From contig CAYRVC010000002.1 in NCBI GenBank assembly GCA_964427585.1, forward strand, positions 41,513-105,512: a DNA stretch of 64,000 nucleotides, given 5' to 3'. The DNA comes from an uncultured Candidatus Saccharibacteria bacterium (GTDB lineage Bacteria; Patescibacteriota; Minisyncoccia; Minisyncoccales; Staskawiczbacteraceae). The notes under the pieces are model-generated. The model was given only the letters and a program-made list of their open reading frames with translations, did not search any database and was not told the DNA's origin. Position numbers and translations under genes: made by a program. Below are positions 1,381 to 61,096 of the stretch, piece by piece. Numbering within the stretch: position 1 is the first letter of the stretch; the number at the start of each line of letters is the position of its first letter.

Positions 1381-1464
1381 GCCGGGGTGATGAAATTGGC
1401 AAACATGCAGCACTCAAAATGCTGTGAGCGAAAGCTCTTGAGGGTTCAACTCCCTCCCTCGGCA
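1381..1464 (+). tRNA. tRNA-Leu (anticodon CAA)
   Basis: Hand-folded cloverleaf: 7-bp acceptor GCCGGGG/CCTCGGC, 3-bp D stem, anticodon stem CAGCA/TGCTG with loop CTCAAAA, long variable arm GAGC/GCTC, T-arm GAGGG-TTCAACT-CCCTC, A73 discriminator; CCA not encoded. Confidence 0.85.
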
Positions 1465-1471
1465 CAGAAAA

Positions 1472-2759: not shown

Positions 2760-3338
2760 TTATCTTAAAATTTTTTCCTTTCTTCCCGTTAAATCAATCA
2801 CCTTTGACGGTTTGGATTTTTTCAAATCTCCTCCGTCAATTACCAGGTCTGGCTTATTTTTTTGTTTACTGAAAACCGCAATAATTTCTCTCACGTCTTT
2901 TAACTCCGGTTTACCTGAAATGTTGGCGGACGTTTGCGCCAATGGCTTGTTTATTTTTTTTAATAAATCATTTAAAAATTTATATTTCGGAATTCTTATC
3001 CCAATCGTTTTCTTGCCAACTCCATAAAGTTTCTTGTGAGCCCCGAGCTCACAAGAAAGGATAAAAGTGAACTTGCCTGGCCAATGTTTTTTTAAAATTC
3101 TTTCCTGCTGTTCGCTAATTTCCGCCAATTTTTTTGCCATTTTAAAATCCTTAACAAAAACAGCCAATGGTTTTGTTTTTGGCCGCCTCTTTATTTTGAA
3201 TATCTTGCCAACCGCTTTTTTGCTATAAATATCGCATAACAAGCCGTAAACAGTATCGGTCGGGCAAATTATCACTCCCCCTTTTTTTATAATTTCAAGC
3301 CCCTTTTCCAGCGCTTTTTTTTGTTTTATAACCTCCAT
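2760..3338 (-). CDS. tsaC: L-threonylcarbamoyladenylate synthase (YrdC/Sua5 family)
   Basis: 192 aa; VIICPTDTVYGL and HWPG..TSANISGKP motifs of YrdC/Sua5; carries an in-frame copy of the GC-rich hairpin element (3031-3057). Confidence 0.8.
   Translation of the reverse strand: MEVIKQKKALEKGLEIIKKGGVIICPTDTVYGLLCDIYSKKAVGKIFKIKRRPKTKPLAVFVKDFKMAKKLAEISEQQERILKKHWPGKFTFILSCELGAHKKLYGVGKKTIGIRIPKYKFLNDLLKKINKPLAQTSANISGKPELKDVREIIAVFSKQKNKPDLVIDGGDLKKSKPSKVIDLTGRKEKILR
3031..3057. repeat. REP-like hairpin copy (TTCTTGTGAGC-CCCGA-GCTCACAAGAA) inside tsaC coding sequence
   Basis: 21-mer TTGTGAGCCCCGAGCTCACAA identical to copy at 43822-43842; encodes SCELGAHK in-frame. Confidence 0.55.
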
Positions 3339-6471: not shown

Positions 6472-8985
6472 TCAAATTTTCAAAACGAAATTTATCAGTT
6501 TTTTAGGGATGAATACAATTTTTATGACTTCCTTTCCCTCCAGCCACTGTTTCACTTTTTCGCTTTCCGCCGTTATTTTTTCCGCCTGTTTTTGTGTTAT
6601 ATTCGCGTCAACTTCCATTTTATCCCTCACCCTGCCGTTAACCTGCACTATCAATAAAATATTTTTTTCTTCAACGAGCCGGTTATCGTGCTTTGGCCAT
6701 TTTTGATTGCAAACAAGCCCTAAAAATCCTTTTTCAACCCACACCTCCTCCGCCAAATGAGGGGCGAAAGGAGACAAAATTGTCAAAAAAATCCTCAAAT
6801 CTTCTTTATCCAAACAACCGCCGGAAACATTCCAGGCGTTCGCAAACTCCATCATGGAACTCACGGCAGTGTTAAATTTCATCGCCTCGATGTCTTCTGA
6901 AACTTTTTTAATAGTTTTGTGTAGCTGTTTTTTAAGCTCTTTTTTTGGTTTGCTTTTTTCAGAATCTGCTTTTTTTGCCAGCTTGTATATTTTTTCAAGA
7001 AATCTTCTTACCCCTATCACCCCTTTTGTGTCCCAGGGAATCATCTGGTCAAAAGGTCCCACGAACATTTCGTAAACCCTTAAAGTATCTGCTCCGTATT
7101 CTTTCACGACCCTATCCGGATTTATCACGTTCCCTTTGGATTTTGACATTTTAATCCCTCCTTCGCCCAGTATCATTCCGTGGGAAGTTCTTTTTAGATA
7201 GGGTTCAGGCTCCATATCTTTGGGAACAGCGCCGATATCCCACAAAAATTTGAATATGAAACGCGAATACAGCAAATGCAAAGTGGTGTGCTCCATTCCT
7301 CCGTTATACCAGTCAACCGGCATCCAATATTCCAGCAGTTTTTTTGCGGCCGGTTCTTTATTGTTTTTAGGGTCTGAATACCTCAAATAATACCAGTTAG
7401 ACCCTGCCCAGTTTGGCATTGTATCTGTTTCTCTCCGACCAACTCCTCCGCATTTAGGGCATTTTACATTGACCCATTGCCTTATTTCGGCCAGTGGAGA
7501 TTCTCCGGTTTTGGTGGGTTTATAATTTTTTACTTTCGGCAACTCCAATGGCAATTTTTTTTCCGGCACGGCAACCCAGCCCGGATTCAGTAATTCGCCT
7601 TTTGTGAATTTTGGATTTTTAGCTTCTGTTTTCCTTTCTATTTTCTTCTTGCAATTTTCGCAAAAAACAAGAGGAATGGGTTCCCCCCAGTAATGCTGGC
7701 GGGAAAATATCCAATCCCTCAGCTTGTAATTTATTTTATTGTCAGCTGAGCCTTTTTCTTTCAGCCAGGATGTGATTTTCAAACGCGCCTCCGTGGAACT
7801 TAATCCGTCAAACTGCATGGAATTATAAAGAATGCCGTCGCCTTCAAAGCATATCTCCATATTTTTCACCCTGGGGGCGATATTTTTATCAATAGGCTCA
7901 ATGGAAGTCCTTAAGGGTATGGCGTATTTTTTGGCAAGCTCAAAATCCCTTTTGTCGTGGGCGTCGCCAAAAACAGCGCCCTTTCCGTAATGCGCCAGAA
8001 CAAAGTCGGTTATGAAAACGGGGATTTCTTCTCCAGTGGCGGGATTCTTTGCTTTTATCCCCTTAAGCTCTACGGCCGTAACCTGTTTTCCCTCGCTAGC
8101 CCTTTCTATGTCGGAAACATCTTTTATTTTATTCCTGTAATCCAAAACTTCTTCCATATTCTGGATTTTATTATTATGCCTGTCTATGAATTTATGCTCG
8201 GGAGCCAGCACCAAAAATGTCCCGGAAAATATGGTGTCTATCCTGGTGGTGAAAACCTCGATAAAATCTTCCATTCTTAAAACTTCAAATCTTACCAATG
8301 CCCCTGCAGACCTCCCTATCCATTCCTTCTGCTGAATTTTTATTTTTTCAAGATAATCAACCGAATCCAAATCTTTGATCAGCCTTTCCGCGTAATCGGT
8401 TATTTTTATCAGCCACTGTTCCTTTTCTTTTTTTTCAACCCTTGTTCCGCATCTTTCGCATTTGCCAGAGACCACTTCTTCGTTCGCCAAACCCGTCTTG
8501 CAGGAAGGGCACCAGTTAATGGGCATTTTTTCCTTGTAAGCCAAACCCTCTCTGAACAGCTGTAAAAATATCCACTGCGTCCATTTGTAATATTTTGGGT
8601 CGGTGGTGTTTACCTCTCGTGACCAGTCAAAAGAATAACCCAGGCTTTTTAACTGTCGCCGGAAATTATCGGTATTCTTTTTGGTGGCGACAGAGGGGTG
8701 GATTCCTTTTTTTATGGCGTAGTTTTCCGTGGGCAGGCCGAAAGCGTCCCAGCCCATGGGAAACAGAACATTAAAACCCTCCATCCTTCTTTTCCTGGCA
8801 ATAATATCCAGGGCCGTGTAGCTCCGGCAATGGCCTACGTGGAGGCCCTCCCCCGAAGGATAAGGAAATTCTGCCAGAAGGTAGAACTTCTTCTTGCCGG
8901 AACGGTTTTTCGCCTTAAAACAGCTGGAGCCATACCACTTTTCCTGCCACTTCTTCTCTATTTCCTGAGGATTATATTTTCGCAT
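6472..8985 (-). CDS. leuS: Leucyl-tRNA synthetase
   Basis: 837 aa class I aaRS; PYPSGEGLHVGHCRSYT (HIGH) and KMSKSKGN motifs, LeuRS-specific zinc/editing regions. Confidence 0.95.
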   Translation of the reverse strand: MRKYNPQEIEKKWQEKWYGSSCFKAKNRSGKKKFYLLAEFPYPSGEGLHVGHCRSYTALDIIARKRRMEGFNVLFPMGWDAFGLPTENYAIKKGIHPSVATKKNTDNFRRQLKSLGYSFDWSREVNTTDPKYYKWTQWIFLQLFREGLAYKEKMPINWCPSCKTGLANEEVVSGKCERCGTRVEKKEKEQWLIKITDYAERLIKDLDSVDYLEKIKIQQKEWIGRSAGALVRFEVLRMEDFIEVFTTRIDTIFSGTFLVLAPEHKFIDRHNNKIQNMEEVLDYRNKIKDVSDIERASEGKQVTAVELKGIKAKNPATGEEIPVFITDFVLAHYGKGAVFGDAHDKRDFELAKKYAIPLRTSIEPIDKNIAPRVKNMEICFEGDGILYNSMQFDGLSSTEARLKITSWLKEKGSADNKINYKLRDWIFSRQHYWGEPIPLVFCENCKKKIERKTEAKNPKFTKGELLNPGWVAVPEKKLPLELPKVKNYKPTKTGESPLAEIRQWVNVKCPKCGGVGRRETDTMPNWAGSNWYYLRYSDPKNNKEPAAKKLLEYWMPVDWYNGGMEHTTLHLLYSRFIFKFLWDIGAVPKDMEPEPYLKRTSHGMILGEGGIKMSKSKGNVINPDRVVKEYGADTLRVYEMFVGPFDQMIPWDTKGVIGVRRFLEKIYKLAKKADSEKSKPKKELKKQLHKTIKKVSEDIEAMKFNTAVSSMMEFANAWNVSGGCLDKEDLRIFLTILSPFAPHLAEEVWVEKGFLGLVCNQKWPKHDNRLVEEKNILLIVQVNGRVRDKMEVDANITQKQAEKITAESEKVKQWLEGKEVIKIVFIPKKLINFVLKI

Positions 8986-27791: not shown

Positions 27792-28140
27792 GGGAGCGTA
27801 AGTTTCGACAGATATTTCCTTAAAAATATGCAAACTCAGTTTTCTAGAACCTGATAAAACTTCTAGAAAAAACATAATTGCCAATTCATTCAATAGGCAA
27901 CCGGTATTGGCATACGCTTAATGCCGCATCTTTGCTGTTGACTCCTGATAAACAGACAAAGGTGTTATACAATCAGGATGGGCAATTCAATTTCCCGGGG
28001 GATTGCTAAGACTTTAACGGGAATCAGGATATTAAAAATTTCGCCTGTTTCTTATTTAATATCCAAACAACAAAGCAGGATAAGTTTGTAGATTTATTTT
28101 TAAAAAATTTCTGGACCCGGGTTCGCCCCCGGCGCTTCCA
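27792..28140 (+). ncRNA. ssrA: tmRNA (ssrA), standard one-piece; proposed tag ANSFNRQPVLAYA
   Basis: 5' GGGAGCG pairs with 3' CGCTTCC (acceptor), T-arm CCGGG-TTCGCCC-CCGG, discriminator A; internal ORF GCC(27880)..GCT TAA(27921) encodes ANSFNRQPVLAYA; located directly after smpB. Confidence 0.75.
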
Positions 28141-28159
28141 CAAAATATATTTTAAAACT

Positions 28160-41768: not shown

Positions 41769-41843
41769 TGGTGCCCCCAGTTGGATTCGAACCAACATTT
41801 TAGACTCCGGAGGCCTAAGTTCTATCCATTGAACTATGGGGAC
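41769..41843 (-). tRNA. tRNA-Arg (anticodon CCG), CCA encoded
   Basis: Hand-folded: acceptor GTCCCCA/TGGGGGC, D stem GTTC/GAAC, anticodon stem TAGGC/GTCTA loop CTCCGGA, T-arm GTTGG-TTCGAAT-CCAAC, 3' ACCA; followed by bidirectional hairpin terminator 41741-41768. Confidence 0.85.
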
Positions 41844-43569: not shown

Positions 43570-43812
43570 TCAAACCGGGGCTTTTTTATTTTTAATTATA
43601 AATCTTAACTTGTTAAAATCTTTCACAGTTTGGCTTGTTATTTCTTCTGACAAAGAAGAAAAATCTTTTATTTTTGAATTTAAATACTTCACAACGGCCT
43701 CTAAGTCTTTTTCAAATTGAGGCTGTGCTTCCTCTTTTGTTTCTATGGTTTTTTCAACGGCTTTGGCGACGCTCGTTTCTTCTTCTGTTGAAAAATTTTC
43801 TCGATTCCTCAT
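43570..43812 (-). CDS. Hypothetical 80-aa protein
   Basis: ORF only; acidic/lysine-rich; no motif. Confidence 0.3.
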   Translation of the reverse strand: MRNRENFSTEEETSVAKAVEKTIETKEEAQPQFEKDLEAVVKYLNSKIKDFSSLSEEITSQTVKDFNKLRFIIKNKKAPV

Positions 43813-43818
43813 AATTTT

Positions 43819-43845
43819 AATTTGTGAGCCCCGAGCTCACAAATT
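43819..43845. repeat. REP-like hairpin copy (AATTTGTGAGC-CCCGA-GCTCACAAATT) overlapping Mur ligase stop codon
   Basis: Perfect 11-bp stem, CCCGA loop. Confidence 0.55.
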
Positions 43846-45114
43846 TTTTAAATTTAAAAAATCTCTTACTGTTTGCCTATCGTCCCAGGGGATTTTTTTT
43901 CCGTTTTTAAGGCACATCCAAGGCTCAGACCCCTTTCCTGTAATTATAACAATATCGCCGGGTTTTGCAAAGCTTAAAGCGTGATTTATCGCCTCTTTTC
44001 TGTCTGGAATTTTTTCCGCTTTTCCGCCCGCCCCCATGGCAACCTGGCTGATTATTTCCATCGGATCTTCGTCATAAGGGTCTTCATTGGTAATAATAAT
44101 TTTATCGCAGTATTTTGCCGCGATTTTTCCCAACTCCGGCCTTTTCCATTTGTCCCTGCCGCCTCCGCAAGAACCCAGCACGCATATTAGTTTGAAATTT
44201 AAAATTTGAAATTTGAAATTTTTTAACGTTTTATAAACGCCTTCTAACTGTTCAGGGGTATGCGCATAATCAACAACAGTCATAAAAGGCTGTTTGGCAA
44301 CAATTTCCATTCTTCCAGGAATTGCTCTGGCTTTTTCTAAAGCTTTAGCGCAAGTTTTTAGATCAACGCCATAAGCTTTGGCAACGCATAATGCCGCCAA
44401 AGCATTACAAATATTAAATTCGCCCAATAGGTTAAGGTTGAATTTTTGCCCTCCAGCCTCAAAGCTGATTCCGTTTTCTGACTTTATATTTTTTGCGTTT
44501 TTAATGCTAAATCTTATTTTTTTTCTTGCCCTGATTTTCAAAAAATGCCCTGCGTTCTCGTCATCTTCATTGATTATATGGATATTTTTTGCCGCCTTGA
44601 ATAATTTTAATTTTTCATTCCTGTAATTTTCAAAACCGCCGTGCGATTCCAGGTGCTCTTTGCCCAAATTGGTAAAAACAGCCGCGTCAAAATTTATAAA
44701 CTTGTGGCGAAACTGTTTTATGCCTTCTGACGTAACTTCTAAAACAACGAATTTACATCCCGCATTTTTTGCCTGGCTTAAAAACTTCTGTATTGCCAAT
44801 CTTCCCGGCATTGTCATTTTATAATTGTTTTTCCATTCTTTTTCCCCGATTTTAAACCTTATGGAAGAGATGGATGCTGTTTTATTGCCAGCTTCCTCCA
44901 AAATCCTTGTTATGAAATCAACCGTTGTTGACTTGCCACTGGTGCCCGTAACCCCGATAATTTTCATATTCTTGTCTTTGCCCGCGAATCCATGCAAAAA
45001 AGCCCCAAGCAATGCCAGTTTATAGTGATAAGCGCTCAGAAAAAACTTTGGCGTAATTTTTTTTATTGTTTCCTTAATTGCCATTGTTTTTAATTTAACA
45101 CGGAGTTCAAACAA
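43837..45114 (-). CDS. Mur ligase family protein (MurE/MurF-like)
   Basis: 425 aa; P-loop GVTGTSGKSTT, DYAHTPE, C-terminal GKGSE..D motif; contains TTCAAAT microsatellite encoding KNFKFQILNFK. Confidence 0.75.
   Translation of the reverse strand: MFELRVKLKTMAIKETIKKITPKFFLSAYHYKLALLGAFLHGFAGKDKNMKIIGVTGTSGKSTTVDFITRILEEAGNKTASISSIRFKIGEKEWKNNYKMTMPGRLAIQKFLSQAKNAGCKFVVLEVTSEGIKQFRHKFINFDAAVFTNLGKEHLESHGGFENYRNEKLKLFKAAKNIHIINEDDENAGHFLKIRARKKIRFSIKNAKNIKSENGISFEAGGQKFNLNLLGEFNICNALAALCVAKAYGVDLKTCAKALEKARAIPGRMEIVAKQPFMTVVDYAHTPEQLEGVYKTLKNFKFQILNFKLICVLGSCGGGRDKWKRPELGKIAAKYCDKIIITNEDPYDEDPMEIISQVAMGAGGKAEKIPDRKEAINHALSFAKPGDIVIITGKGSEPWMCLKNGKKIPWDDRQTVRDFLNLKNL
44191..44226. repeat. Heptamer microsatellite (ATTTGAA/TTCAAAT)n inside Mur ligase CDS
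   Basis: Encodes KNFKFQILNFK on coding strand. Confidence 0.7.
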
Positions 45115-51646: not shown

Positions 51647-53692
51647 TTATATTTCAGAAACCAGCAATTCCAATGCTGCTTCCGGTTCCAGTCTTCCTGA
51701 TTTAATATCCAAATCTGCCTGAAATATTTTCTGGTAGATTTTTTTTAATTCAGAAAAAGAAAACCGGCTGCACAAATAATATGTTTTTTTAACGACAAAC
51801 GGGTGAAGCCCGCTTTTTTTTGCTATGGCAGGATAAGGATTTTTCTTTTCAGCCAGCTCCTTGATTATCAAAAGAGTCCTGAACTGGTAAGCAATCATCG
51901 AAAGCAGCCTTAAAACGTTTTCTCCGCTTTCCAGGTGTTTATGCAAAAGAGAGATTGCCTCTTTTTTGTTTTTTGAAGCCAAGGCATCTATGGTTTTGAA
52001 TATGTCGTTTTCTATTTTCGGCTTTAAAAATAAATCCACATCGTCTTTCGTTATTTTTTTTCCGTTTTTAAAACAGGCTAATTTTTTTATTTCGTTGCTG
52101 ACATGCCACAAGTCTGAGCTGACGCGGCAAAAAAATCTTTCCAGGGCGGATTCGTCTATTTCAGCTTTAAAAATTTCGAACTCTTTTTTCAGCCAGTTTT
52201 TAAGCAAAACCCCTTTTAACAAATTGAATTCTTGGCATTTGGCGTTCTTATTTAGAAACTTGAAAAGCGGGTCCTTTTTTTCTATTTTGGAAGGCTCGTA
52301 CAGCAAAATAATAACATCTTCAGATTCCGAAAAGTCCTTCGCTTCTTTTAAAAACTTATCTCTTAAAATGTCATCCGAGAAAATATTCAAAACCACCAGC
52401 AGTTTTTTTTCACCAGAAAACAGGGAAATCTGGCTGGCTTTGTTTTTAAAATCTAAAAAAACTTGCTCCGACCCTCTGCCATCGTCTAAAAAATTGAAAA
52501 GACCAAAAGACATCCCGCTTTTATGGATTTTTTTGTAATGGTCAATTATTTCATTTAATTTCTGCCTTGACCTATATGTGTCCTCCCCGTATAAAAATAT
52601 AATCATGCTCAAATATTTAAAAAAGTAATTTTTTCTGACCTTATAGCCGTTGCAATGTTTTAAAACTCCTAAATAAGATTGAATCGTTTGATTAAAATTT
52701 TCCTTTGTTATTTTTCCATCCTTCAATTCCACTTCCCTTATTTTTAAATTTTTGATTATTCTGTTTTTGGTTTTTATCCTTAAAATTCTATAATGAGGAA
52801 ATACGACATATCCTAAAAAATCAATACCTTGATGATATTTCCTTATTATTATCTTATCTTTATGCAAAGATAATTTCAAATTATTTTTCAGAAAATTGCT
52901 TATATCTCTAATTGTCTGTCTGTAGTTTCTGCTCAAAATAGTGAAGTCGTCGCAGTAACGAATATAGTATTTTTCTTTTAGTTCATGCTTAATAAATTTA
53001 TCCAATTCGCCAAGATAAATATTTGCGAATAATTGACTTGTTATGTTTCCCAAGGGCAACCCTTTTGGAAAACTCTTTATAATCCTGATTATCAACCAAA
53101 TTACATCATCGTATTTTATTTTATTTTTGATTAAACTAATCAAAGTATCCTGGTCAATTGAATCAAAATATTTTCTAATATCGCATTTTAAAATATAACA
53201 GGTTTTTGTGTTATTTTTACTGATCTTTCCAGCAAAACAATTTAATCTGTTCACTGCCCTGTGCGTTCCTTTATCGATCCTGCAGGAATAAGAATCAAAA
53301 ATAAATGATTTATCAAAAATAGGATATAAAATTCTAAATATGGCATGATGCAAAACTCTGTCTTTCACCGTTGCCTTATGAATTTTTCTCAATTTTGGGT
53401 CTTTAATGAAAAAAGAGGTATAATTTGAATGTCGGTAGGTTTTATTTTTTAATTCGTTATAAAGAAGAAAAATATTGTCTTCTAAATTATATTCAAATTC
53501 CTGGACATCTGGCTTTTTCCTTTTTCCCTTTTTAAATTCGTTCCAGGCAAAGAATAAATTTTCAAGGGATATTATTCTTTCAAAAATATCATGGCTTTTA
53601 ATACCCCCCCCCCCAGACCTTTGGCAATTTTGATGTTCCTGTTTTGCATAAGATTTGCGAATTCTATAAAAAAATTTATCTGTTGTTGCCAA
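51647..53692 (-). CDS. DGR-type reverse transcriptase fused in-frame to DNA polymerase III delta subunit (HolA)
   Basis: aa ~35-360: RT motifs incl. SYSCRIDKGTHRAV, YILKCDIRKYFDSI, DGR-hallmark PLGNITSQLFANIYL (SQ instead of SP), YCDD, GIDFLGY, SYLGVLKHCNGY; aa 363-681: MIIFLYGEDTY..GEKKLLVVLN..GENVLRLLSMIAYQFR..LDIKSGRLEPEAALELLV matches HolA end-to-end; no stop codon between (verified on nucleotides 52600-52660). Confidence 0.8.
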   Translation of the reverse strand: MATTDKFFYRIRKSYAKQEHQNCQRSGGGGIKSHDIFERIISLENLFFAWNEFKKGKRKKPDVQEFEYNLEDNIFLLYNELKNKTYRHSNYTSFFIKDPKLRKIHKATVKDRVLHHAIFRILYPIFDKSFIFDSYSCRIDKGTHRAVNRLNCFAGKISKNNTKTCYILKCDIRKYFDSIDQDTLISLIKNKIKYDDVIWLIIRIIKSFPKGLPLGNITSQLFANIYLGELDKFIKHELKEKYYIRYCDDFTILSRNYRQTIRDISNFLKNNLKLSLHKDKIIIRKYHQGIDFLGYVVFPHYRILRIKTKNRIIKNLKIREVELKDGKITKENFNQTIQSYLGVLKHCNGYKVRKNYFFKYLSMIIFLYGEDTYRSRQKLNEIIDHYKKIHKSGMSFGLFNFLDDGRGSEQVFLDFKNKASQISLFSGEKKLLVVLNIFSDDILRDKFLKEAKDFSESEDVIILLYEPSKIEKKDPLFKFLNKNAKCQEFNLLKGVLLKNWLKKEFEIFKAEIDESALERFFCRVSSDLWHVSNEIKKLACFKNGKKITKDDVDLFLKPKIENDIFKTIDALASKNKKEAISLLHKHLESGENVLRLLSMIAYQFRTLLIIKELAEKKNPYPAIAKKSGLHPFVVKKTYYLCSRFSFSELKKIYQKIFQADLDIKSGRLEPEAALELLVSEI

Positions 53693-53964
53693 AAATTCCT
53701 AAGAAAGACAGGTTTGGAATTTTTGCGAGGATAGAAACTTTTTGTTTAGATATATTAATTTTGACAATTGAATCTGCTCTGCAAACAAAAAATAACAAAC
53801 TTCAACTATTAAATTTAACAAGAATAAAAATTGAGACCTTGAAAAAATTGATAAGAATCGCTAACGAATTAAAAATTATTGAGGATAAAAAATACATAGA
53901 GTTGGAATTTGATTTGCAGGAAATATCTAAAATGATTAATGGCTGGATAAAATACTTAATATAA
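53644..53964 (+). CDS. avd: Avd-like accessory variability determinant (four-helix-bundle / 23S rRNA-IVS protein family)
   Basis: 106 aa; LPKIPKKDRFGIFARIE..ILTIESA and ..ISKMINGWIKYL match IVS41/Avd pattern (FPK.EKyGL.sQl.R...Si..NIAEG ... GWIk); divergent from and overlapping RT 5' end by 49 nt. Confidence 0.65.
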   Translation: MHKICEFYKKIYLLLPKIPKKDRFGIFARIETFCLDILILTIESALQTKNNKLQLLNLTRIKIETLKKLIRIANELKIIEDKKYIELEFDLQEISKMINGWIKYLI

Positions 53965-53994
53965 AAGGAGCTTTTAAAAAGCTCCTTTTATTGC

Positions 53995-54115
53995 GGAAAC
54001 TTCGGAGCGGGACCGCAAATAGTCGTTGTGATTGTTGGCGTAGTTCCAATTCACCTTGAACTTGCCGTCATTCCAGTTCGCGTTCGGCACGTAGCCATCG
54101 GAATTGCGGGAACCG
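53995..54115 (-). repeat. DGR template repeat (TR), sense on minus strand, AAC-rich
   Basis: 121-nt repeat 88% identical to VR; minus-strand reading GSRNSDGYVPNANWNDGKFKVNWNYANNHNDYLRSRSEVS with 8 AAC/AAT Asn codons. Confidence 0.7.
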
Positions 54116-54298
54116 TTATTTATTTAATTCCATCTATTTCACCGAAAGTTTTTTTTAAAAAACAATCTGTGTTATCTGGCGGTCGCCAGCAGTACTTCGA
54201 ACCAAATGTTCGTTAGAATTAAACAAGCAGTTTCCTAAAAAAGGCAAACCGACATCGAATTAAAAATTCGACCGGCTGTATTAGCCAAAGTTATTATA

Positions 54299-54344
54299 CA
54301 TAAAAAAAGAGCTCTTTTGCAACATCTTGTCGCAAAAGAGCTTT
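54299..54344 (-). terminator. Rho-independent terminator of DGR target gene
   Basis: Minus-strand hairpin AAGCTCTTTTGC-loop-GCAAAAGAGCTC followed by TTTTTTT. Confidence 0.6.
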
Positions 54345-54352
54345 ACTGACGA

Positions 54353-54371
54353 GTCCCGCCGCGGGCGGGAC
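54353..54371 (-). promoter_or_regulatory. GC-rich hairpin 34 nt downstream of VR (GTCCCGCC-GCG-GGCGGGAC)
   Basis: 8-bp all-GC stem in AT-rich context; position equivalent to the hairpin/cruciform described downstream of VR in characterised DGRs. Confidence 0.45.
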
Positions 54372-54401
54372 AGGAAAAAAGGAAAAAGGTACAAGGTTAA
54401 G

Positions 54402-55100
54402 TTAGGAAACTACGGAGCGGGACCGCAAATCGTCGTAGTGATTGCTGGCGTAGTTCCAAGAAACCCTGAACCTGCCGTCATCCCAGAACGCGCTCGGCAC
54501 GTCGCCATCGGAATTGCGGGAACCGGCGCAAAGCGTCCAATTTTTCATATCAAGATGTTCACCTGTTTCCTTGAAAAACTTGAGCTCGTAAAGCTCGCGC
54601 TCTTCAAGGGTAATTTCTGGTGTTTCTCTCTGCCTTAGAAAATCAGCAGAACGATTTTTGTTTTCCTCATCTGCCTCCACGCGGTCTCGCGCCCAAATGG
54701 CATAGTGGCCGTTTTCGCCAGTGCGGTCGGATTTAATAACTTCGTCCAAGCTCTTATCCGTATATTTCCAAGACGGAAAGAGCTCTTTGCACTTGTCAAA
54801 CAAACGCTGGGGAGTCATCCCCTGGGCAACCACCAGTAGGCGGTCAAAGCCGGGTTTGCTGTCGGGAATTTTAATTCCCGAAAAATCCAATTCAAGACCA
54901 AAGACCTCCTTGTAGAATTTGATCCAGTCAGCCAGTAATTTCTTACTGCTGGTCGGCTTTGCTTCGACTAGCTTCTTGCCATCGATAATCGCCTGCAAAA
55001 CATCGCTTACTTCTTTAGGGTCGCGTTTTCCATCAACTAAAAACTTGCCAACGCTCGCCCACTGTTTAAACAATGTTTCATACACATTTCCACTACTCAT
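54402..55100 (-). CDS. DGR variable (target) protein with C-terminal VR
   Basis: 232 aa; last 40 aa encoded by VR (..GSRNSDGDVPSAFWDDGRFRVSWNYASNHYDDLRSRSVVS); C-terminal W/R/S-rich signature reminiscent of CLec/FGE-type DGR targets. Confidence 0.65.
   Translation of the reverse strand: MSSGNVYETLFKQWASVGKFLVDGKRDPKEVSDVLQAIIDGKKLVEAKPTSSKKLLADWIKFYKEVFGLELDFSGIKIPDSKPGFDRLLVVAQGMTPQRLFDKCKELFPSWKYTDKSLDEVIKSDRTGENGHYAIWARDRVEADEENKNRSADFLRQRETPEITLEERELYELKFFKETGEHLDMKNWTLCAGSRNSDGDVPSAFWDDGRFRVSWNYASNHYDDLRSRSVVS
54405..54525 (-). repeat. DGR variable repeat (VR) at 3' end of target gene
   Basis: 14 mismatches to TR; 11 at positions where TR sense strand has A. Confidence 0.7.
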
Positions 55101-55256
55101 GGCGTTTCTCCTAAAAAGAACTGTTCTGCCTGCTTCTAACAGGCGGTTTTAGAAAGGAACCGCTCCTTTCTTTTACTTTTTATATTAACAAATAAAAGTC
55201 ATTTTGTCAAATTTATTTGTACATTTATTAACATTTTCTAAACTTTGTTCAAATTC

Positions 55257-55279
55257 TGTTCGAGCCCCGAGCTCGAACA
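55257..55279. repeat. REP-like hairpin copy (TGTTCGAGC-CCCGA-GCTCGAACA) downstream of transposase
   Basis: 9-bp stem, same GAGCCCCGAGCTC core. Confidence 0.55.
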
Positions 55280-55294
55280 ATTTTACAACTTTAC

Positions 55295-56029
55295 CTACTC
55301 CAAAAATAATTCTGAATATTTTGCAACATCTTTTTTGTGTTCTACCCAATCTTTTATAATTTTTTTTAACCCCTCAACTTCACCTGTCATCTCTAAAAGA
55401 AATTCTCTTTCGGTTACTGACGGAAAGTTTTCAATGCCAATGCAGTCTTGATAGCTAGACCATTTATAATTTTCTAAAAATTCAACTGTTTCGTCAACTG
55501 AATGGTTCCTTATTCCCAACTCTTTCCAACCCGGTTCAATAAGAGCAATAGGGTTTGTGAAAATATAAGATGCGGTCGCCATAAATTGATTATCGTTTTC
55601 TATTTGAATCGACCTAAATGCATCCTGAAAAACATGCCCTTTTCGCTGATATTTATCATTAAAATATCTGCCATAACCTCCTCCGACTTTTTGCATAAAT
55701 TTAGAAATACCACCATCCTTAATTTGTTTTAATAAAAGATGCAAGTGATTGGGCATAAAACAAAAAGCCAAAACTCCAACAATTTTTTCTCTTTTGTCAA
55801 TTAAAACCGACCGAGCCCCGAGGTCGATCATTTTCTCTTTTTTCTTTTCGGTTTTACGATTTCGTCTTCTGACAGATATATTTACTGGCTTTAAATTATT
55901 AAATTCATATATTGAAAAAACTCCTCGGAAATAGTCATCTATGTTCTTAAAGATTAAATTCTCATCAAGCGCTCTTATTATTATATGATAAATTCCGCCT
56001 GTATCAAATTGTTCTTTTCTGCGAGGCAT
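55295..56029 (-). mobile_element. IS200/RAYT-like HUH tyrosine transposase (Y1_Tnp family)
   Basis: Start at internal MPRRKEQFDTGGIYHIIIRALDENLIF; HUH motif FMPNHLHLLL; catalytic-Tyr region ASYIFTNP; flanked by GC-rich hairpins at 56053-56075 and 55257-55279. Confidence 0.65.
55808..55828. repeat. Degenerate REP-like hairpin copy inside transposase ORF (CGACCGAGCCCCGAGGTCG)
   Basis: Core GAGCCCCGAGGTC with one substitution; encodes IDLGARS within an apparent ~40-aa insertion. Confidence 0.4.
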
Positions 56030-56052
56030 AATAATTGTTCGAGCCCCGAGCT

Positions 56053-56075
56053 CGATCGGTTTTAATATTATAATT
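56053..56075. repeat. REP-like hairpin copy (TTGTTCGAGC-CCCGA-GCTCGATC) between mutM stop and transposase start
   Basis: Same core; imperfect outer stem. Confidence 0.5.
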
Positions 56076-56952
56076 ATTGGGGTTTTTGGCAGGAGGGGCA
56101 GAAGAAGGCGCTGCGCTGGCCTATTTTCAGCCGTTTTATTTTTTGACCGCAACGGGAGCATTTCTGGCCGGCTCTTTTATAAACCTTTCTTTCGTCATCA
56201 AAGTCTCCTTTCCGACCGTCGGGCTTCCTGTAATCCGAAAAGCTTTCACCGCCCAATTTTATCCCTAAAGTTAAAACTTTTTTGATGGCGTTATAAAGCA
56301 ATTTTAACTCTTTATCGTTTAAGTTTGAAGTGTCTTTTCCAGGATGAATTTTTGCCAACCACAGCGCCTCGCTGGAATATATGTTTCCTATGCCGGCAAT
56401 AATTTCCTGATTCATCAAGATCTGTTTTATCTTGCCTTTTTTATTTTTAAAAACTTCTTTAAATTTTTTAAAAGTGAAGTCTTTTTCCAACGGCTCTGGA
56501 CCCAGTTTTTTCAAATCTTTAGAATTTAACAGCTCTTTTGTTTTCCATAACTCAACCTTGGCAAATTTTCTCATATCAGACAAGGCCAGCATGCTGCTGT
56601 TGTCTAAAAAAAATATCAAATGCAGAAAACGGTTATAAGGATCGGCCAAGGGGCTGTTTTGAGGAGCCGTCCACCCGTTTCCATTTCTTTGCCATTTCCC
56701 GCATAAAAGATGTCCTGTCATTTTTTGGTGGACCAGCAAGGAATATCCTTTAGATAATTCCACAATTACATTTTTTGCCCTGCGCCAGGCTTTGATTATT
56801 TTTTTGCCTTTTATCTCTTTTTTGAAAGCTTTAAAATTGTTCGGCTTCTTTATTATTTTTTCCGCGTCCGTCCAAACATCAAGAAAGGTCCTGCCAAGGA
56901 CCTTTGAGTTCAAACCTTTCACCGTTGTTTCCACTTCCGGCAATTCCGGCAT
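56074..56952 (-). CDS. mutM: Formamidopyrimidine-DNA glycosylase (Fpg/Nei family)
   Basis: 292 aa; N-terminal MPELPEVE catalytic Pro2/Glu3, H2TH domain, C-terminal CxxC..CxxC zinc finger. Confidence 0.85.
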   Translation of the reverse strand: MPELPEVETTVKGLNSKVLGRTFLDVWTDAEKIIKKPNNFKAFKKEIKGKKIIKAWRRAKNVIVELSKGYSLLVHQKMTGHLLCGKWQRNGNGWTAPQNSPLADPYNRFLHLIFFLDNSSMLALSDMRKFAKVELWKTKELLNSKDLKKLGPEPLEKDFTFKKFKEVFKNKKGKIKQILMNQEIIAGIGNIYSSEALWLAKIHPGKDTSNLNDKELKLLYNAIKKVLTLGIKLGGESFSDYRKPDGRKGDFDDERKVYKRAGQKCSRCGQKIKRLKIGQRSAFFCPSCQKPQ

Positions 56953-56956
56953 ATTA

Positions 56957-57544
56957 TTAAATATTATTGGGATCTTCTTTTCTGCTCTTATCTATGCCTA
57001 AGTCTTCTTTTAATTTGCTAATTTCCGCCTTAAGGGCGATTGCTTCTTTCTCTTTGTTGCGGGACCCTTCTTTAAGATTTTCCGATTCCTCTAACAGCCT
57101 TTCAAGCTCTATGGTCCTGTTCCTTACTTTCTGCTCCAAAGCGCCAATTGTCTCTTCCAGGTTTTGCGTTTTGGCCCTTACTTTTATGTCCACTGATTTT
57201 TCGGTTTTTTCAGATTCTGAACGGCTTTTTTCCAGGTCTTCGGCTATTCTGTTAAAAATTTTAGCCAGCTCTCCGAATTCGTCCTTTGTTTCAAGATAAA
57301 CCCTGGTTGTCAGGTCTCCCTGGCTTAATTCCGTGGCTCTTTTTAATATTTTTCTTATGGGCATGGCAAAATTCTGGCCGGTGGCAAAGCCGAATAAAAA
57401 AATAAAAACGGAAAGCAAAAAGACCACGATATAAAAACCGGTGTTCGTTTTGCTTGACTCTAAGGCTATAAAAACAACGATGGTAAAAATGCCTATGATG
57501 ATTATGGGCAGGGCTATTTTGACTGTAATAGCGGATATGTTCAT
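56957..57544 (-). CDS. Membrane protein with HAMP domain and coiled-coil tail
   Basis: 195 aa; two N-terminal TM helices, HAMP-like MPIRKILKRATELSQGDLTTRV..FGELAKIFNRIAEDLE. Confidence 0.5.
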   Translation of the reverse strand: MNISAITVKIALPIIIIGIFTIVVFIALESSKTNTGFYIVVFLLSVFIFLFGFATGQNFAMPIRKILKRATELSQGDLTTRVYLETKDEFGELAKIFNRIAEDLEKSRSESEKTEKSVDIKVRAKTQNLEETIGALEQKVRNRTIELERLLEESENLKEGSRNKEKEAIALKAEISKLKEDLGIDKSRKEDPNNI

Positions 57545-59412: not shown

Positions 59413-60137
59413 GCCTTTAGGTTTGAATATATGTCATTTATGGCGTCATTTTCGTCTAACGCCAGAAACAGTTTTTCTGCCTGTTCCTTTTCTTTCTGCC
59501 CAATATCCACTTCCTCTTTGGCAACCCATTCCAAAGAAGCAGAGTCTATCTTTATCTGCTTTTCTTCCAGGTTTTTTTTAATCGCTTCAAGGTTTTCAAG
59601 TTTTGTGTAAATATCAAGAACGTCTCCCCTCCGGGAAATATCTTCAGCCCCCGACTCGATGGCTATTAATTCCAAATCTTCGTTTTTCAGACCCGGTTGC
59701 TGGTCTTTAATATTTATCGCGATTACACCCTTCCTGTCAAACATCCACCTTACAGCCCCTTCCCCGGCCAGTTTGCCGCCGTTTTGGTTTAAAATAACCT
59801 TTATATCGCTAATACTCCTATTTTTATTGTCGGTGATGCCTTCGATGATAAGGGCTATTCCTCCTGGCCCGAATCCTTCAAAAGAAACCTCCTCCAGCTT
59901 TTCGCCCGCCAGTTCGCCCGTGCCTTTTTTTATGGCCCTTTCAATATTCTCTTTGGGCATATTAAAAGACTTGGCTTGGTCTATAACAATCCTTAATTTG
60001 TAATTTATCGAAGGATCTCCGCCTTCTTTGGCGGCAATAGTTATGAGCCTGCCGAATTTGGAAAATATCGCCCCCCTTTTGGCATCTGCAATGCCCTTTG
60101 CGTGCGCTATGGTTTTTGCATGACTGTGTCCTGACAT
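59409..60137 (-). CDS. yebC: YebC/PmpR-family transcriptional regulator
   Basis: 242 aa; MSGHSHAKTIAHAKGIADAKRG..FSKFGR signature. Confidence 0.9.
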   Translation of the reverse strand: MSGHSHAKTIAHAKGIADAKRGAIFSKFGRLITIAAKEGGDPSINYKLRIVIDQAKSFNMPKENIERAIKKGTGELAGEKLEEVSFEGFGPGGIALIIEGITDNKNRSISDIKVILNQNGGKLAGEGAVRWMFDRKGVIAINIKDQQPGLKNEDLELIAIESGAEDISRRGDVLDIYTKLENLEAIKKNLEEKQIKIDSASLEWVAKEEVDIGQKEKEQAEKLFLALDENDAINDIYSNLKA

Positions 60138-61096
60138 GGTTTTAATTTATCTTTTTTAAAAATTTTAACTTTATAAATAAAACTATTGCAAAAGAAATCG
60201 CGGTAATAAATAAAGATATAAAAAAACAAAAACCAAGGGTTTGACCGTTCTGTGTCTTCTTGATTTAAGCCGGCCGTTAAGTCTTTCAGATATACATTAC
60301 CATTATCAGATTTTTTTATTTCTGACAAGGGTTTTGAGGCGGCATTATTTTTAAAAGCCGCAACGTTTATTATGTTTTTTGCGCCCGGAGTCAATGCTTG
60401 GCTCCATTTCCAACTGCCGGATATTTTATTGTAAGATTGGTTTAAGGGAGGTTTTTCAAATTCCGCGGAATCAACACTTTTATTGTCCGGCGTTAAAAGC
60501 TTTAAGCCGTCTTTGTCGTTGTTCAGCATTATTTTTGTGTCCGGCCTTTTAAAAACTAAAAAACCATCTGCTGAAATTTTTGTGCCTTTTATAATCGTAT
60601 AAGTTGCAATCTTTCCGACAGTATCCTGAATTTTCCAGCCAGACAAATCTGCTTCAAAATTATTTGAATTGTAAACCTCTATCCATTCTTCTGTTTCGTC
60701 CGGTCCTTTCGGGTTTGGCAAAATTTCGTTTATAAAAACTCCTGAAGGATAACTTTTAAGAGTTTGCGGAGAACGGGTCTCCGCTTGCTCAACCTCCGTT
60801 TGCTCTACCTTCCCTTGCTCTACCTTCGCTTGCTCAATCTCCACCTGTCCAGCATAAGCTGACCCTTGGTCTTTTATTTTCTGCAAAGTTTTTTCCCCTA
60901 TTCCTTTCACTCTTAACAGGTCGTCAACCGAAGAAAAAGGCCTTGCGTCAATTATTCTCTGCCCTATCACCGGACCGACGCCAGCCAACTCTTCAAGTTG
61001 GCTTTGGGGGGCGGCATTAATGTCTATCTTATTTTCCGCATAAACAAAAACCGGAATAAACAAAAAGCTAAAAAATAAAAATAGAACTTTCTTCAT
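60107..61096 (-). CDS. Secreted ComEA-like HhH DNA-binding protein fused to lamin-tail domain
   Basis: 329 aa; signal peptide, HhH (LEELAGVGPVIGQRII..VKGIGEKTLQKI), EQ-rich tandem linker, LTD-like ..FINEILPNPKGPDETEEWIEVYN.. Confidence 0.6.
   Translation of the reverse strand: MKKVLFLFFSFLFIPVFVYAENKIDINAAPQSQLEELAGVGPVIGQRIIDARPFSSVDDLLRVKGIGEKTLQKIKDQGSAYAGQVEIEQAKVEQGKVEQTEVEQAETRSPQTLKSYPSGVFINEILPNPKGPDETEEWIEVYNSNNFEADLSGWKIQDTVGKIATYTIIKGTKISADGFLVFKRPDTKIMLNNDKDGLKLLTPDNKSVDSAEFEKPPLNQSYNKISGSWKWSQALTPGAKNIINVAAFKNNAASKPLSEIKKSDNGNVYLKDLTAGLNQEDTERSNPWFLFFYIFIYYRDFFCNSFIYKVKIFKKDKLKPCQDTVMQKP

Follow-up and report, generated by a model that had tools for sequence, protein, structure and literature searches.

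A small gene in a 64,000-nt stretch of a Candidatus Staskawiczbacteria genome (Patescibacteria/Candidate Phyla Radiation, CPR), here called the window, and the short hairpins that surround it probably form a REPtron-like locus, that is, a domesticated Y1 HUH single-stranded DNA (ssDNA) nuclease or transferase of the RAYT/TnpA_REP kind (RAYT, REP-associated tyrosine transposase; REP, repetitive extragenic palindrome) together with its cognate short palindromic repeats. The system is of a known kind, REP/RAYT, and is met here in a new lineage and in a new form.

The start of the gene at MPRRKEQ, to which the initial annotation of the window had moved it, agreed with the NCBI gene call and with all homologs. 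A longer open reading frame (ORF) of 288 amino acids (aa; 55295..56161) was rejected as the gene because it overlaps the end of fpg and finds no support in the public gene call or in the homologs, all of which start MPxRKE. Judged by its motifs, the product is an intact HUH/Tyr enzyme, with H95 and H97 forming the HUH motif (nt 55739-55747) and Y155 as the catalytic tyrosine (nt 55565-55567). Alignment of 61 homologs revealed that H95, H97, Y155 and N159 were invariant and P160 nearly so, corresponding to the Y---NP signature of class 2 defined by Quentin et al. 2018 (PMC6006769). A Pfam scan of the protein found Y1_Tnp as the sole domain (E 1.4e-9, 38.5 bits against a cut-off of 23), aligned from residue 80 only. 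The AlphaFold (AF2) model, for which 61 sequences were used, exhibited a Y1 core with an extra basic helix (residues 51-68) at a mean confidence score (pLDDT) of 82; residues 69-83, which include those encoded by a hairpin, were unstructured, with pLDDT <50 at positions 71-75. When this model was submitted to Foldseek, the top PDB match was 4ER8, the E. coli TnpA_REP with a REP hairpin (E 2.3e-6, target TM 0.68), and the IS608, ISDra2 and IS200 transposases ranked after it. The earlier assignment to the Y1/RAYT family, made from the HUH and Tyr motifs, was thus supported by domain match, invariant residues and fold.

The initial annotation had also noted an apparent insertion of about 40 aa. 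The insertion is real and comprises 36 aa as measured against the nearest non-CPR relatives in an alignment with Firmicute proteins, but it is neither specific to this gene nor a recent accident: like the internal hairpin that it hosts, it occurs family-wide, with position and reading frame fixed. It consists of a conserved basic helix (R54, R55, R58, K62) followed by a variable loop that is encoded by the hairpin.

The enzyme belongs to a family of 1725 protein clusters, nearly all of them about 240-250 aa long with full coverage. A scan of species-representative genomes yielded 79 loci, about 60 of which came from Patescibacteria, and 2-4 homologs (paralogs) often occurred in one genome. The enzyme-hairpin system is common in Patescibacteria and no oddity of the window genome; the earlier impression that it would be unusual for a streamlined genome had to be given up because the family is so widespread in this group. 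The closest relatives outside the CPR were proteins from Clostridia and other Bacillota (26-36% identity), which have the motifs MPR...IYH, NHxHLL, RKGHVFQD, YIxxNP and WSS in common with the CPR family. Compared with these Bacillota proteins, the CPR members carry the 36-aa insertion and another of 16 aa after the Tyr motif, and they are without the helix-turn-helix (HTH) tail. Scanning two relatives for Bac_DnaA_C gave a weak match in Clostridium lundense (26.9 bits, below the Pfam cut-off of 31.5) and none in the other. A subclass-2.1-like relative in a metagenome-assembled genome of Syntrophomonas (L068) is flanked by hairpins of the sequence gaacaagg-GGACGGGTA-ccttgttc (7434-7466 and 8294-8318 of that locus). 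Because of these flanking hairpins, the ACGGG loop motif may predate the CPR family.

To quantify the repeats in the window, exact and one-mismatch matches to the core GAGCCCCGAGCTC were counted in the 64 kb and in 100 shuffles. The + strand carried all five copies, four of them exact (3038, 43826, 55262 and 56041) and one with a single mismatch (55813), compared with a shuffle mean of 0.54, and none of the 100 shuffles reached five. Each exact copy formed part of a perfect hairpin, the 5-nt loop of which was CCCGA. Folding energies (dG, kcal/mol, ssDNA) and z-scores were computed for each hairpin of the window (Table 1). The upstream cognate hairpin lies 18 nt past the stop codon of fpg and 9 nt ahead of the ATG of the RAYT gene (dG -6.0/-6.4, z about -2.7 to -3), and the downstream hairpin lies 16 nt past the RAYT stop codon (dG -9.8, z -7). 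Of the two hairpins that were said to bracket the gene, the downstream one had been placed correctly, while the upstream segment, 56053-56075, was about 15 nt off and yielded 0 kcal/mol; the actual upstream hairpin nevertheless falls within the overall span given in that annotation. The degenerate third copy reported inside the gene was recovered with its single mismatch; it encodes I68-V75 (IDLGARSV) and folds weakly (z -1.3). Further copies with differing stem extensions, likewise reported before, turned out to be perfect hairpins. One of them (dG -12.5, z -8) is located in frame inside a TsaC/Sua5 gene (2760..3338, - strand), where it encodes LSCELGAHKK, and the other contains the TGA that terminates a Mur ligase ORF (43837..45114, - strand) and is situated 6 nt upstream of the ATG of the ORF 43570..43812 (- strand).

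A ComEA/LTD-like ORF (60107..61096, - strand) contains, in its variable linker, an in-frame hairpin (AETRSPQ) of a second family, which has the same apical motif and belongs with other RAYT paralogs, for example L022, as its cognates. Its sequence is identical to that of the hairpins flanking the paralog L022 and of a hairpin just after the Mur ligase gene of L006, suggesting that the window genome has, or once had, a second RAYT paralog with its own repeat family.

Table 1. Features of the 64-kb window with their coordinates (dG in kcal/mol).
Feature	Position	Strand	Details
RAYT-like class-2 Y1 HUH nuclease gene	55295..56029	-	244 aa + stop, starts MPRRKEQ
CPR-family 36-aa insertion	55796..55903	-	residues ~43-78, between helix A and strand 2
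Upstream cognate hairpin	56039..56055	.	tcgagc-CCCGA-gctcga on + strand, 6-bp stem
Internal in-frame hairpin, degenerate	55808..55830	.	core 55813-55825, one mismatch
Downstream cognate hairpin	55257..55279	.	tgttcgagc-CCCGA-gctcgaaca, 9-bp stem
Dispersed copy in TsaC/Sua5 gene	3030..3058	.	12-bp stem, tttcttgtgagc-CCCGA-gctcacaagaaa
Dispersed copy at Mur ligase end	43819..43845	.	11-bp stem, dG -10.7, z -11
Second-family hairpin	60766..60784	.	gcggaga-ACGGG-tctccgc, dG -8.3, z -3.7
Reverse transcriptase ORF of diversity-generating retroelement	51647..53692	-	
Template/variable repeat pair of diversity-generating retroelement	53995-54115 + 54405-54525		121 nt, 88% identical
tmRNA gene	27792-28141		
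tRNA-Leu	1381-1465		
tRNA-Arg	41769-41843		

Matching hairpins were also found around homologs in dozens of genomes. Each homologous locus was scanned across the RAYT gene together with 120 nt of upstream and 150 nt of downstream sequence. Most of 57 Patescibacteria loci contained three hairpins with one locus-specific stem: an upstream one at -25 to -70, an intragenic one at about coding nt 190-205 and a downstream one just past the stop codon. A shared-word test, which is independent of hairpin calling, was conducted on the same number of loci with words of at least 11 nt. Such words were shared between the upstream and downstream zones at 48 of the 57 loci, between the internal and downstream zones at 40, between the upstream and internal zones at 36 and among all three at 32, while the control between different loci gave 7.7%. 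The stems of the fpg-linked orthologs varied by genome (GTGAGC, TCGAGC, TCGAAG, GTGAGA, CCGAGC, CGACG, CCGAGA and others). Since stems differ between genomes while the three copies of each locus agree, the three hairpins of a locus evolve in concert. The internal copy, degenerate in the window, was represented in homologs by perfect hairpins that matched it in location and frame, and the reading frame of the internal hairpin was identical in 27 of 32 cases. The encoded peptide was highly variable among homologs, which points to a constraint on the nucleic acid and not on the protein.

When 125 hairpins were aligned on the loop, conservation across the family was limited to the tip, GAGN-NCGGG-NCTC, whose GAG and CTC occurred in 101-120 of them. 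The lower stems were variable yet complementary, and A-rich and T-rich flanks lengthened the stem; the check for stem covariation that had been proposed with the initial annotation thus gave a positive result. Loop orientation flipped at all three positions across loci, with 23 CCCGN, 15 NCGGG and 6 ambiguous cases upstream and 9, 32 and 8, respectively, downstream. REPIN-like inverted doublets were observed at some loci (L013, L040, L051, L053, L056), as were 'double-foot' GTAG...CTAC hairpins (e.g., L013, L022, L037).

Hairpin density was determined in 929 kb of CPR sequence from related loci by counting tip motifs with a stem of at least 6 bp, with shuffles as a control. We found 126 such hairpins compared to 0.8 in shuffles. 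As many as 100 of them had a RAYT gene no more than 200 nt away (1.3 per kb), a zone in which they were about 44 times denser. Among the dispersed hairpins, 13 of 26 carried the 6-nt apical arm of the local RAYT hairpins, against a baseline of 5.5%. Comparison of insertion sites among relatives, again as proposed earlier, revealed that both dispersed sites of the window are polymorphic. The hairpin of the TsaC site was absent from most orthologs, and two other lineages carried gtgtgaga-TCGGG-tctcacac and gatcgagc-TCGGG-gctcgatc, respectively, in the same loop. At the Mur ligase site, five of six orthologous loci covering the gene end had no hairpin, and L006 had one of a different family. That the same sites differ in hairpin presence among lineages shows repeated insertion or replacement of hairpins in the past.

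A metagenome scan for GTGAGCCCCGAGCTCAC yielded mainly chance matches in high-GC contigs without stem extension and was therefore unusable for copy counts; low GC and extended stems coincided in only 7 of 80 examined loci. The low-GC copies with extended stems included in-frame cases in genes for RNase HII, a phosphoesterase and a RecG-like helicase and at a second TsaC site. In-frame REPs in genes, often those of DNA metabolism, have been documented before (PMC3733652), and so have REPs inside tnpA_REP genes of subclass 2.4 (PMC6006769). At the very loop that bears the hairpin in other lineages, one TsaC homolog (P0141; alignment A2, columns ~105-150) had a segment of about 15 aa, ILKKHWPGK[Y/F]TFVL, duplicated in tandem. 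This duplication may be the scar of an insertion or of a template-switch event.

The gene order 5'-3' exonuclease, HAMP protein, fpg and RAYT was kept in at least 12 genomes, over which RAYT identity ranged from 80% to 53%, and the identities of RAYT and Fpg were correlated (Spearman 0.89). Paralogs within a genome were 58-78% identical, never near-identical, and each had a hairpin sequence of its own. By these comparisons, it is a chromosomally fixed, vertically inherited and domesticated gene of the RAYT type that does not itself move. Such an inheritance profile is that of class-2 TnpA_Y1/RAYT genes and not of IS200 (PMC6006769).

We propose that the palindromes of about 25-35 nt fold on transiently single-stranded DNA, with the conserved tip as the family-wide recognition feature and the lower stem as the determinant of lineage or paralog specificity. 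The enzyme would bind the hairpin and cut nearby by means of Tyr155 and an HUH-bound metal, and rejoining of strands could then occasionally copy or move hairpins in trans. New hairpins would persist where they are tolerated, namely at gene ends and in disordered protein loops. Strand exchange, local gene conversion or quasi-palindrome template switching might keep the three local hairpins identical and their stems compensated. The gene would stay put, and only the hairpins would spread. One extension of this proposal holds that the in-frame hairpin is a maintained cis-site, used for self-regulation or strand exchange, and that the cassette acts as a 'master' array which seeds the loops of housekeeping proteins; we put it forward tentatively and think it on balance unlikely.

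Several observations weigh against a REPtron-like locus. The protein scored 46.8 bits with the NCBIfam model NF047646 (REP_Tyr_transpos), below the equivalog cut-off of 80. Sequence-profile searches of the PDB returned no match at E<=0.01 and only marginal ones, ISDra2 and 4ER8, at E 0.08-0.14, so that the fold comparison was needed. The canonical 5' GT[AG]G tag of REPs was present in 12 of the 126 hairpins and in none of the copies of the window. Only 26 of the 126 hairpins lay outside the RAYT zones, corresponding to about 3 per 100 kb in the 929 kb, which is a low copy number. Moreover, the compensated stems could result from quasi-palindrome template-switch correction without selection. 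In the window genome, the internal copy has decayed, and the dispersed copies have the apical arm GTGAGC, which does not match the TCGAGC of the gene-flanking copies. Because of this difference in stems and the decay of the internal copy, the window locus itself calls for caution. The GTGAGC stem type flanks the RAYT gene in the sister lineages L004 and L005.

The strongest competitor assigns the enzyme a host function as a domesticated, hairpin-specific factor that binds or nicks ssDNA in replication, repair or regulation, with the hairpins as fixed cis-sites that have lost their mobility and the dispersed copies as old fossils. Despite deep divergence, the gene has kept its place among DNA-repair genes (5'-3' exonuclease, fpg, ruvABC), which would be in accord with such a role, as would the low hairpin copy number and the stem mismatch between the dispersed copies of the window and its own RAYT hairpins. 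Furthermore, most members keep the internal hairpin at a single site and in a single frame, which suggests a role in cis. Lineage-specific presence and absence in unrelated housekeeping genes, however, requires repeated insertion or replacement, and half of the dispersed copies match the apical arm of the local RAYT hairpins exactly. We therefore regard this explanation as improbable as a full account, slightly more so than the 'master' array, while noting that it overlaps with the REPtron-like explanation and that both can hold.

Much less probable is the idea that the hairpins are RNA-level elements (stabilisers, attenuators or terminators) unrelated to the enzyme, whose proximity would be coincidental. 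All five copies of the window are oriented alike with respect to transcription, and two of them are situated 6-9 nt upstream of start codons, as might be expected for such elements. Against this stand the flipping of the loop orientation at every position across loci, the many copies in frame within coding regions, the roughly 44-fold enrichment next to RAYT genes and the covariation of stems with the adjacent paralog. Mismatches of the G-T type were not in excess of A-C (26 vs 28), so this test of RNA- versus DNA-level selection, a noisy one, gave no bias. An Rfam scan of 54000-57500 yielded sub-threshold chance matches only. Terminators in particular were rejected, given the lack of a T-run after the hairpins on the transcribed strand and the many copies located within genes. 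Least plausible of all is an autonomous insertion sequence of the IS200/IS605 type, an approximately 800-bp unit with the flanking hairpins as its ends that transposes whole: the Y1 transposase fold, the 2-4 homologs in several genomes and the two flanking hairpins of the window, on the same strand and about 780 bp apart, would fit, but this candidate was rejected because the gene follows fpg in at least 12 genomes, co-diverging with it, and has paralogs that are never near-identical, and it is further contradicted by the Y---NP signature of class 2 in place of Y---Q, by end hairpins whose orientation varies between loci and by the occurrence of the same hairpins singly elsewhere and inside genes.

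Directly downstream of the RAYT locus, the window contains a diversity-generating retroelement (DGR; 51647-55100), which also comprises a bAvd gene and whose variable copy forms the 3' end of a 232-aa ORF (54402..55100, - strand). A homolog of its reverse transcriptase was also found after the RAYT gene in L005 and near the RAYT gene in L063. Just upstream of the start of the DGR target gene, we observed an 8-bp hairpin, agaaagga-ACCGC-tcctttct (55140-55160), and a match to the Rfam family freshwater-2 (55098-55169, - strand; 24.8 bits against a threshold of 49.9, E 0.79), both of which are probably due to chance. In the window (1-64000), the minus strand carries almost every gene, and the GC skew of the + strand is negative throughout, which places the whole stretch in a single replichore.

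So far, REP/RAYT systems have been described chiefly in Proteobacteria and in some other phyla, and the mode by which REPs spread is poorly understood. With the present data, the enzyme-hairpin partnership includes Patescibacteria, with their ultra-small genomes, as well as relatives of the 'REP-less' subclass 2.1. If the reading of the in-frame hairpin as a maintained cis-site were true, the system would be the first in which REPs go with Y1 enzymes of the subclass-2.1 type and the first described from Patescibacteria, and recognition of the hairpin tip would replace the GTAG guide. The family offers an unusually clean natural experiment, with hundreds of orthologous loci that each carry three hairpins evolving in concert, and with a conserved tip that can be told apart from the variable stem proposed to confer specificity. 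The peptides that the repeats insert into essential proteins (TsaC, RNase HII, RecG-like) can be scored, which is relevant to the annotation of CPR proteins and their indels. As the system is small (a protein of 244 aa and a hairpin of about 25 nt), its recognition rules are accessible to direct testing in vitro.

Among known systems, the REPtron of E. coli (TnpA_REP/RAYT subclass 2.2 with REP/BIME; PMC3333891, PMC3479197, PMC8266576) likewise combines a single-Tyr HUH Y1 enzyme with cognate GC-rich hairpins that flank the gene and also occur dispersed. It also has in common with the CPR family the few gene copies, diverged paralogs, vertical inheritance and enzyme-hairpin co-evolution. The CPR hairpins, by contrast, have neither the 5' GTAG guide tetranucleotide nor a bulged stem, the tip being conserved instead, and they number about 30 per Mb (extrapolated), whereas the E. 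coli type reaches hundreds. The CPR protein differs in its length of 244 aa, its 36-aa insertion and helical tail, one hairpin inside the gene and its score below the NCBIfam equivalog cut-off. The initial annotation had seen a REP/RAYT system in this pattern. Its central element, a Y1 enzyme with cognate hairpins, was borne out, but the GTAG tag is missing and the NCBIfam cut-off is not reached, so the system is RAYT/REP-like without being canonical.

IS200/IS605 elements (TnpA_IS200, subclass 1.1) share the HUH/Tyr fold, and their recognition of subterminal hairpins in ssDNA provides a mechanistic model. Their transposases are of about 150 aa with Y---Q and occur in many near-identical mobile copies, in contrast to the CPR protein, which has 244 aa and YIFTNP, is encoded next to fpg and has paralogs of 58-78% identity.

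A further parallel is found in the palindromic elements of Rickettsia and in intragenic REPs (cited in PMC3733652), which are short in-frame palindromes in housekeeping genes of a reduced genome. They, too, are tolerated in surface loops, often in genes of DNA metabolism. The Rickettsia elements are longer, at about 100-150 bp, and are not known to have a cognate transposase, whereas each CPR unit measures about 25-35 nt and the repeats go with a specific Y1 enzyme.

Subclass 2.4 (Group 4 RAYTs of Bertels; PMC6006769) resembles the CPR family in having in-frame cognate REPs inside its own gene, in a peripheral variable region; the 'double-foot' hairpins of some CPR loci are a further likeness. 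In the CPR proteins, the hairpin-encoded segment (residues 68-75) precedes the HUH motif (95-97) and retains a fixed position and one frame in most members, and the motifs are FQ and YIFTNP instead of the WQ and YIxNNP of subclass 2.4. Subclass 2.1 (Group 1 RAYTs, TIRYTs; PMC6006769, PMC3733652, PMC5581495) is similar in motifs and in its length of about 240 aa, and the motifs that the CPR family has in common with the Bacillota relatives are the signatures listed for this subclass in PMC6006769. Comparison by eye with Table 1 of PMC6006769 identified NHLH, GHVFQD (with FQ at the position of the W motif), YIFTNP and KWSSY in the window protein. According to the published description (PMC6006769), subclass 2.1 is without REPs and bears a DnaA_C-like HTH at its C terminus, whereas the CPR family is without the HTH, has two extra insertions and is tightly associated with hairpins. 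By its sequence motifs, we assign the enzyme to class 2, with subclass 2.1 as its apparent closest group.

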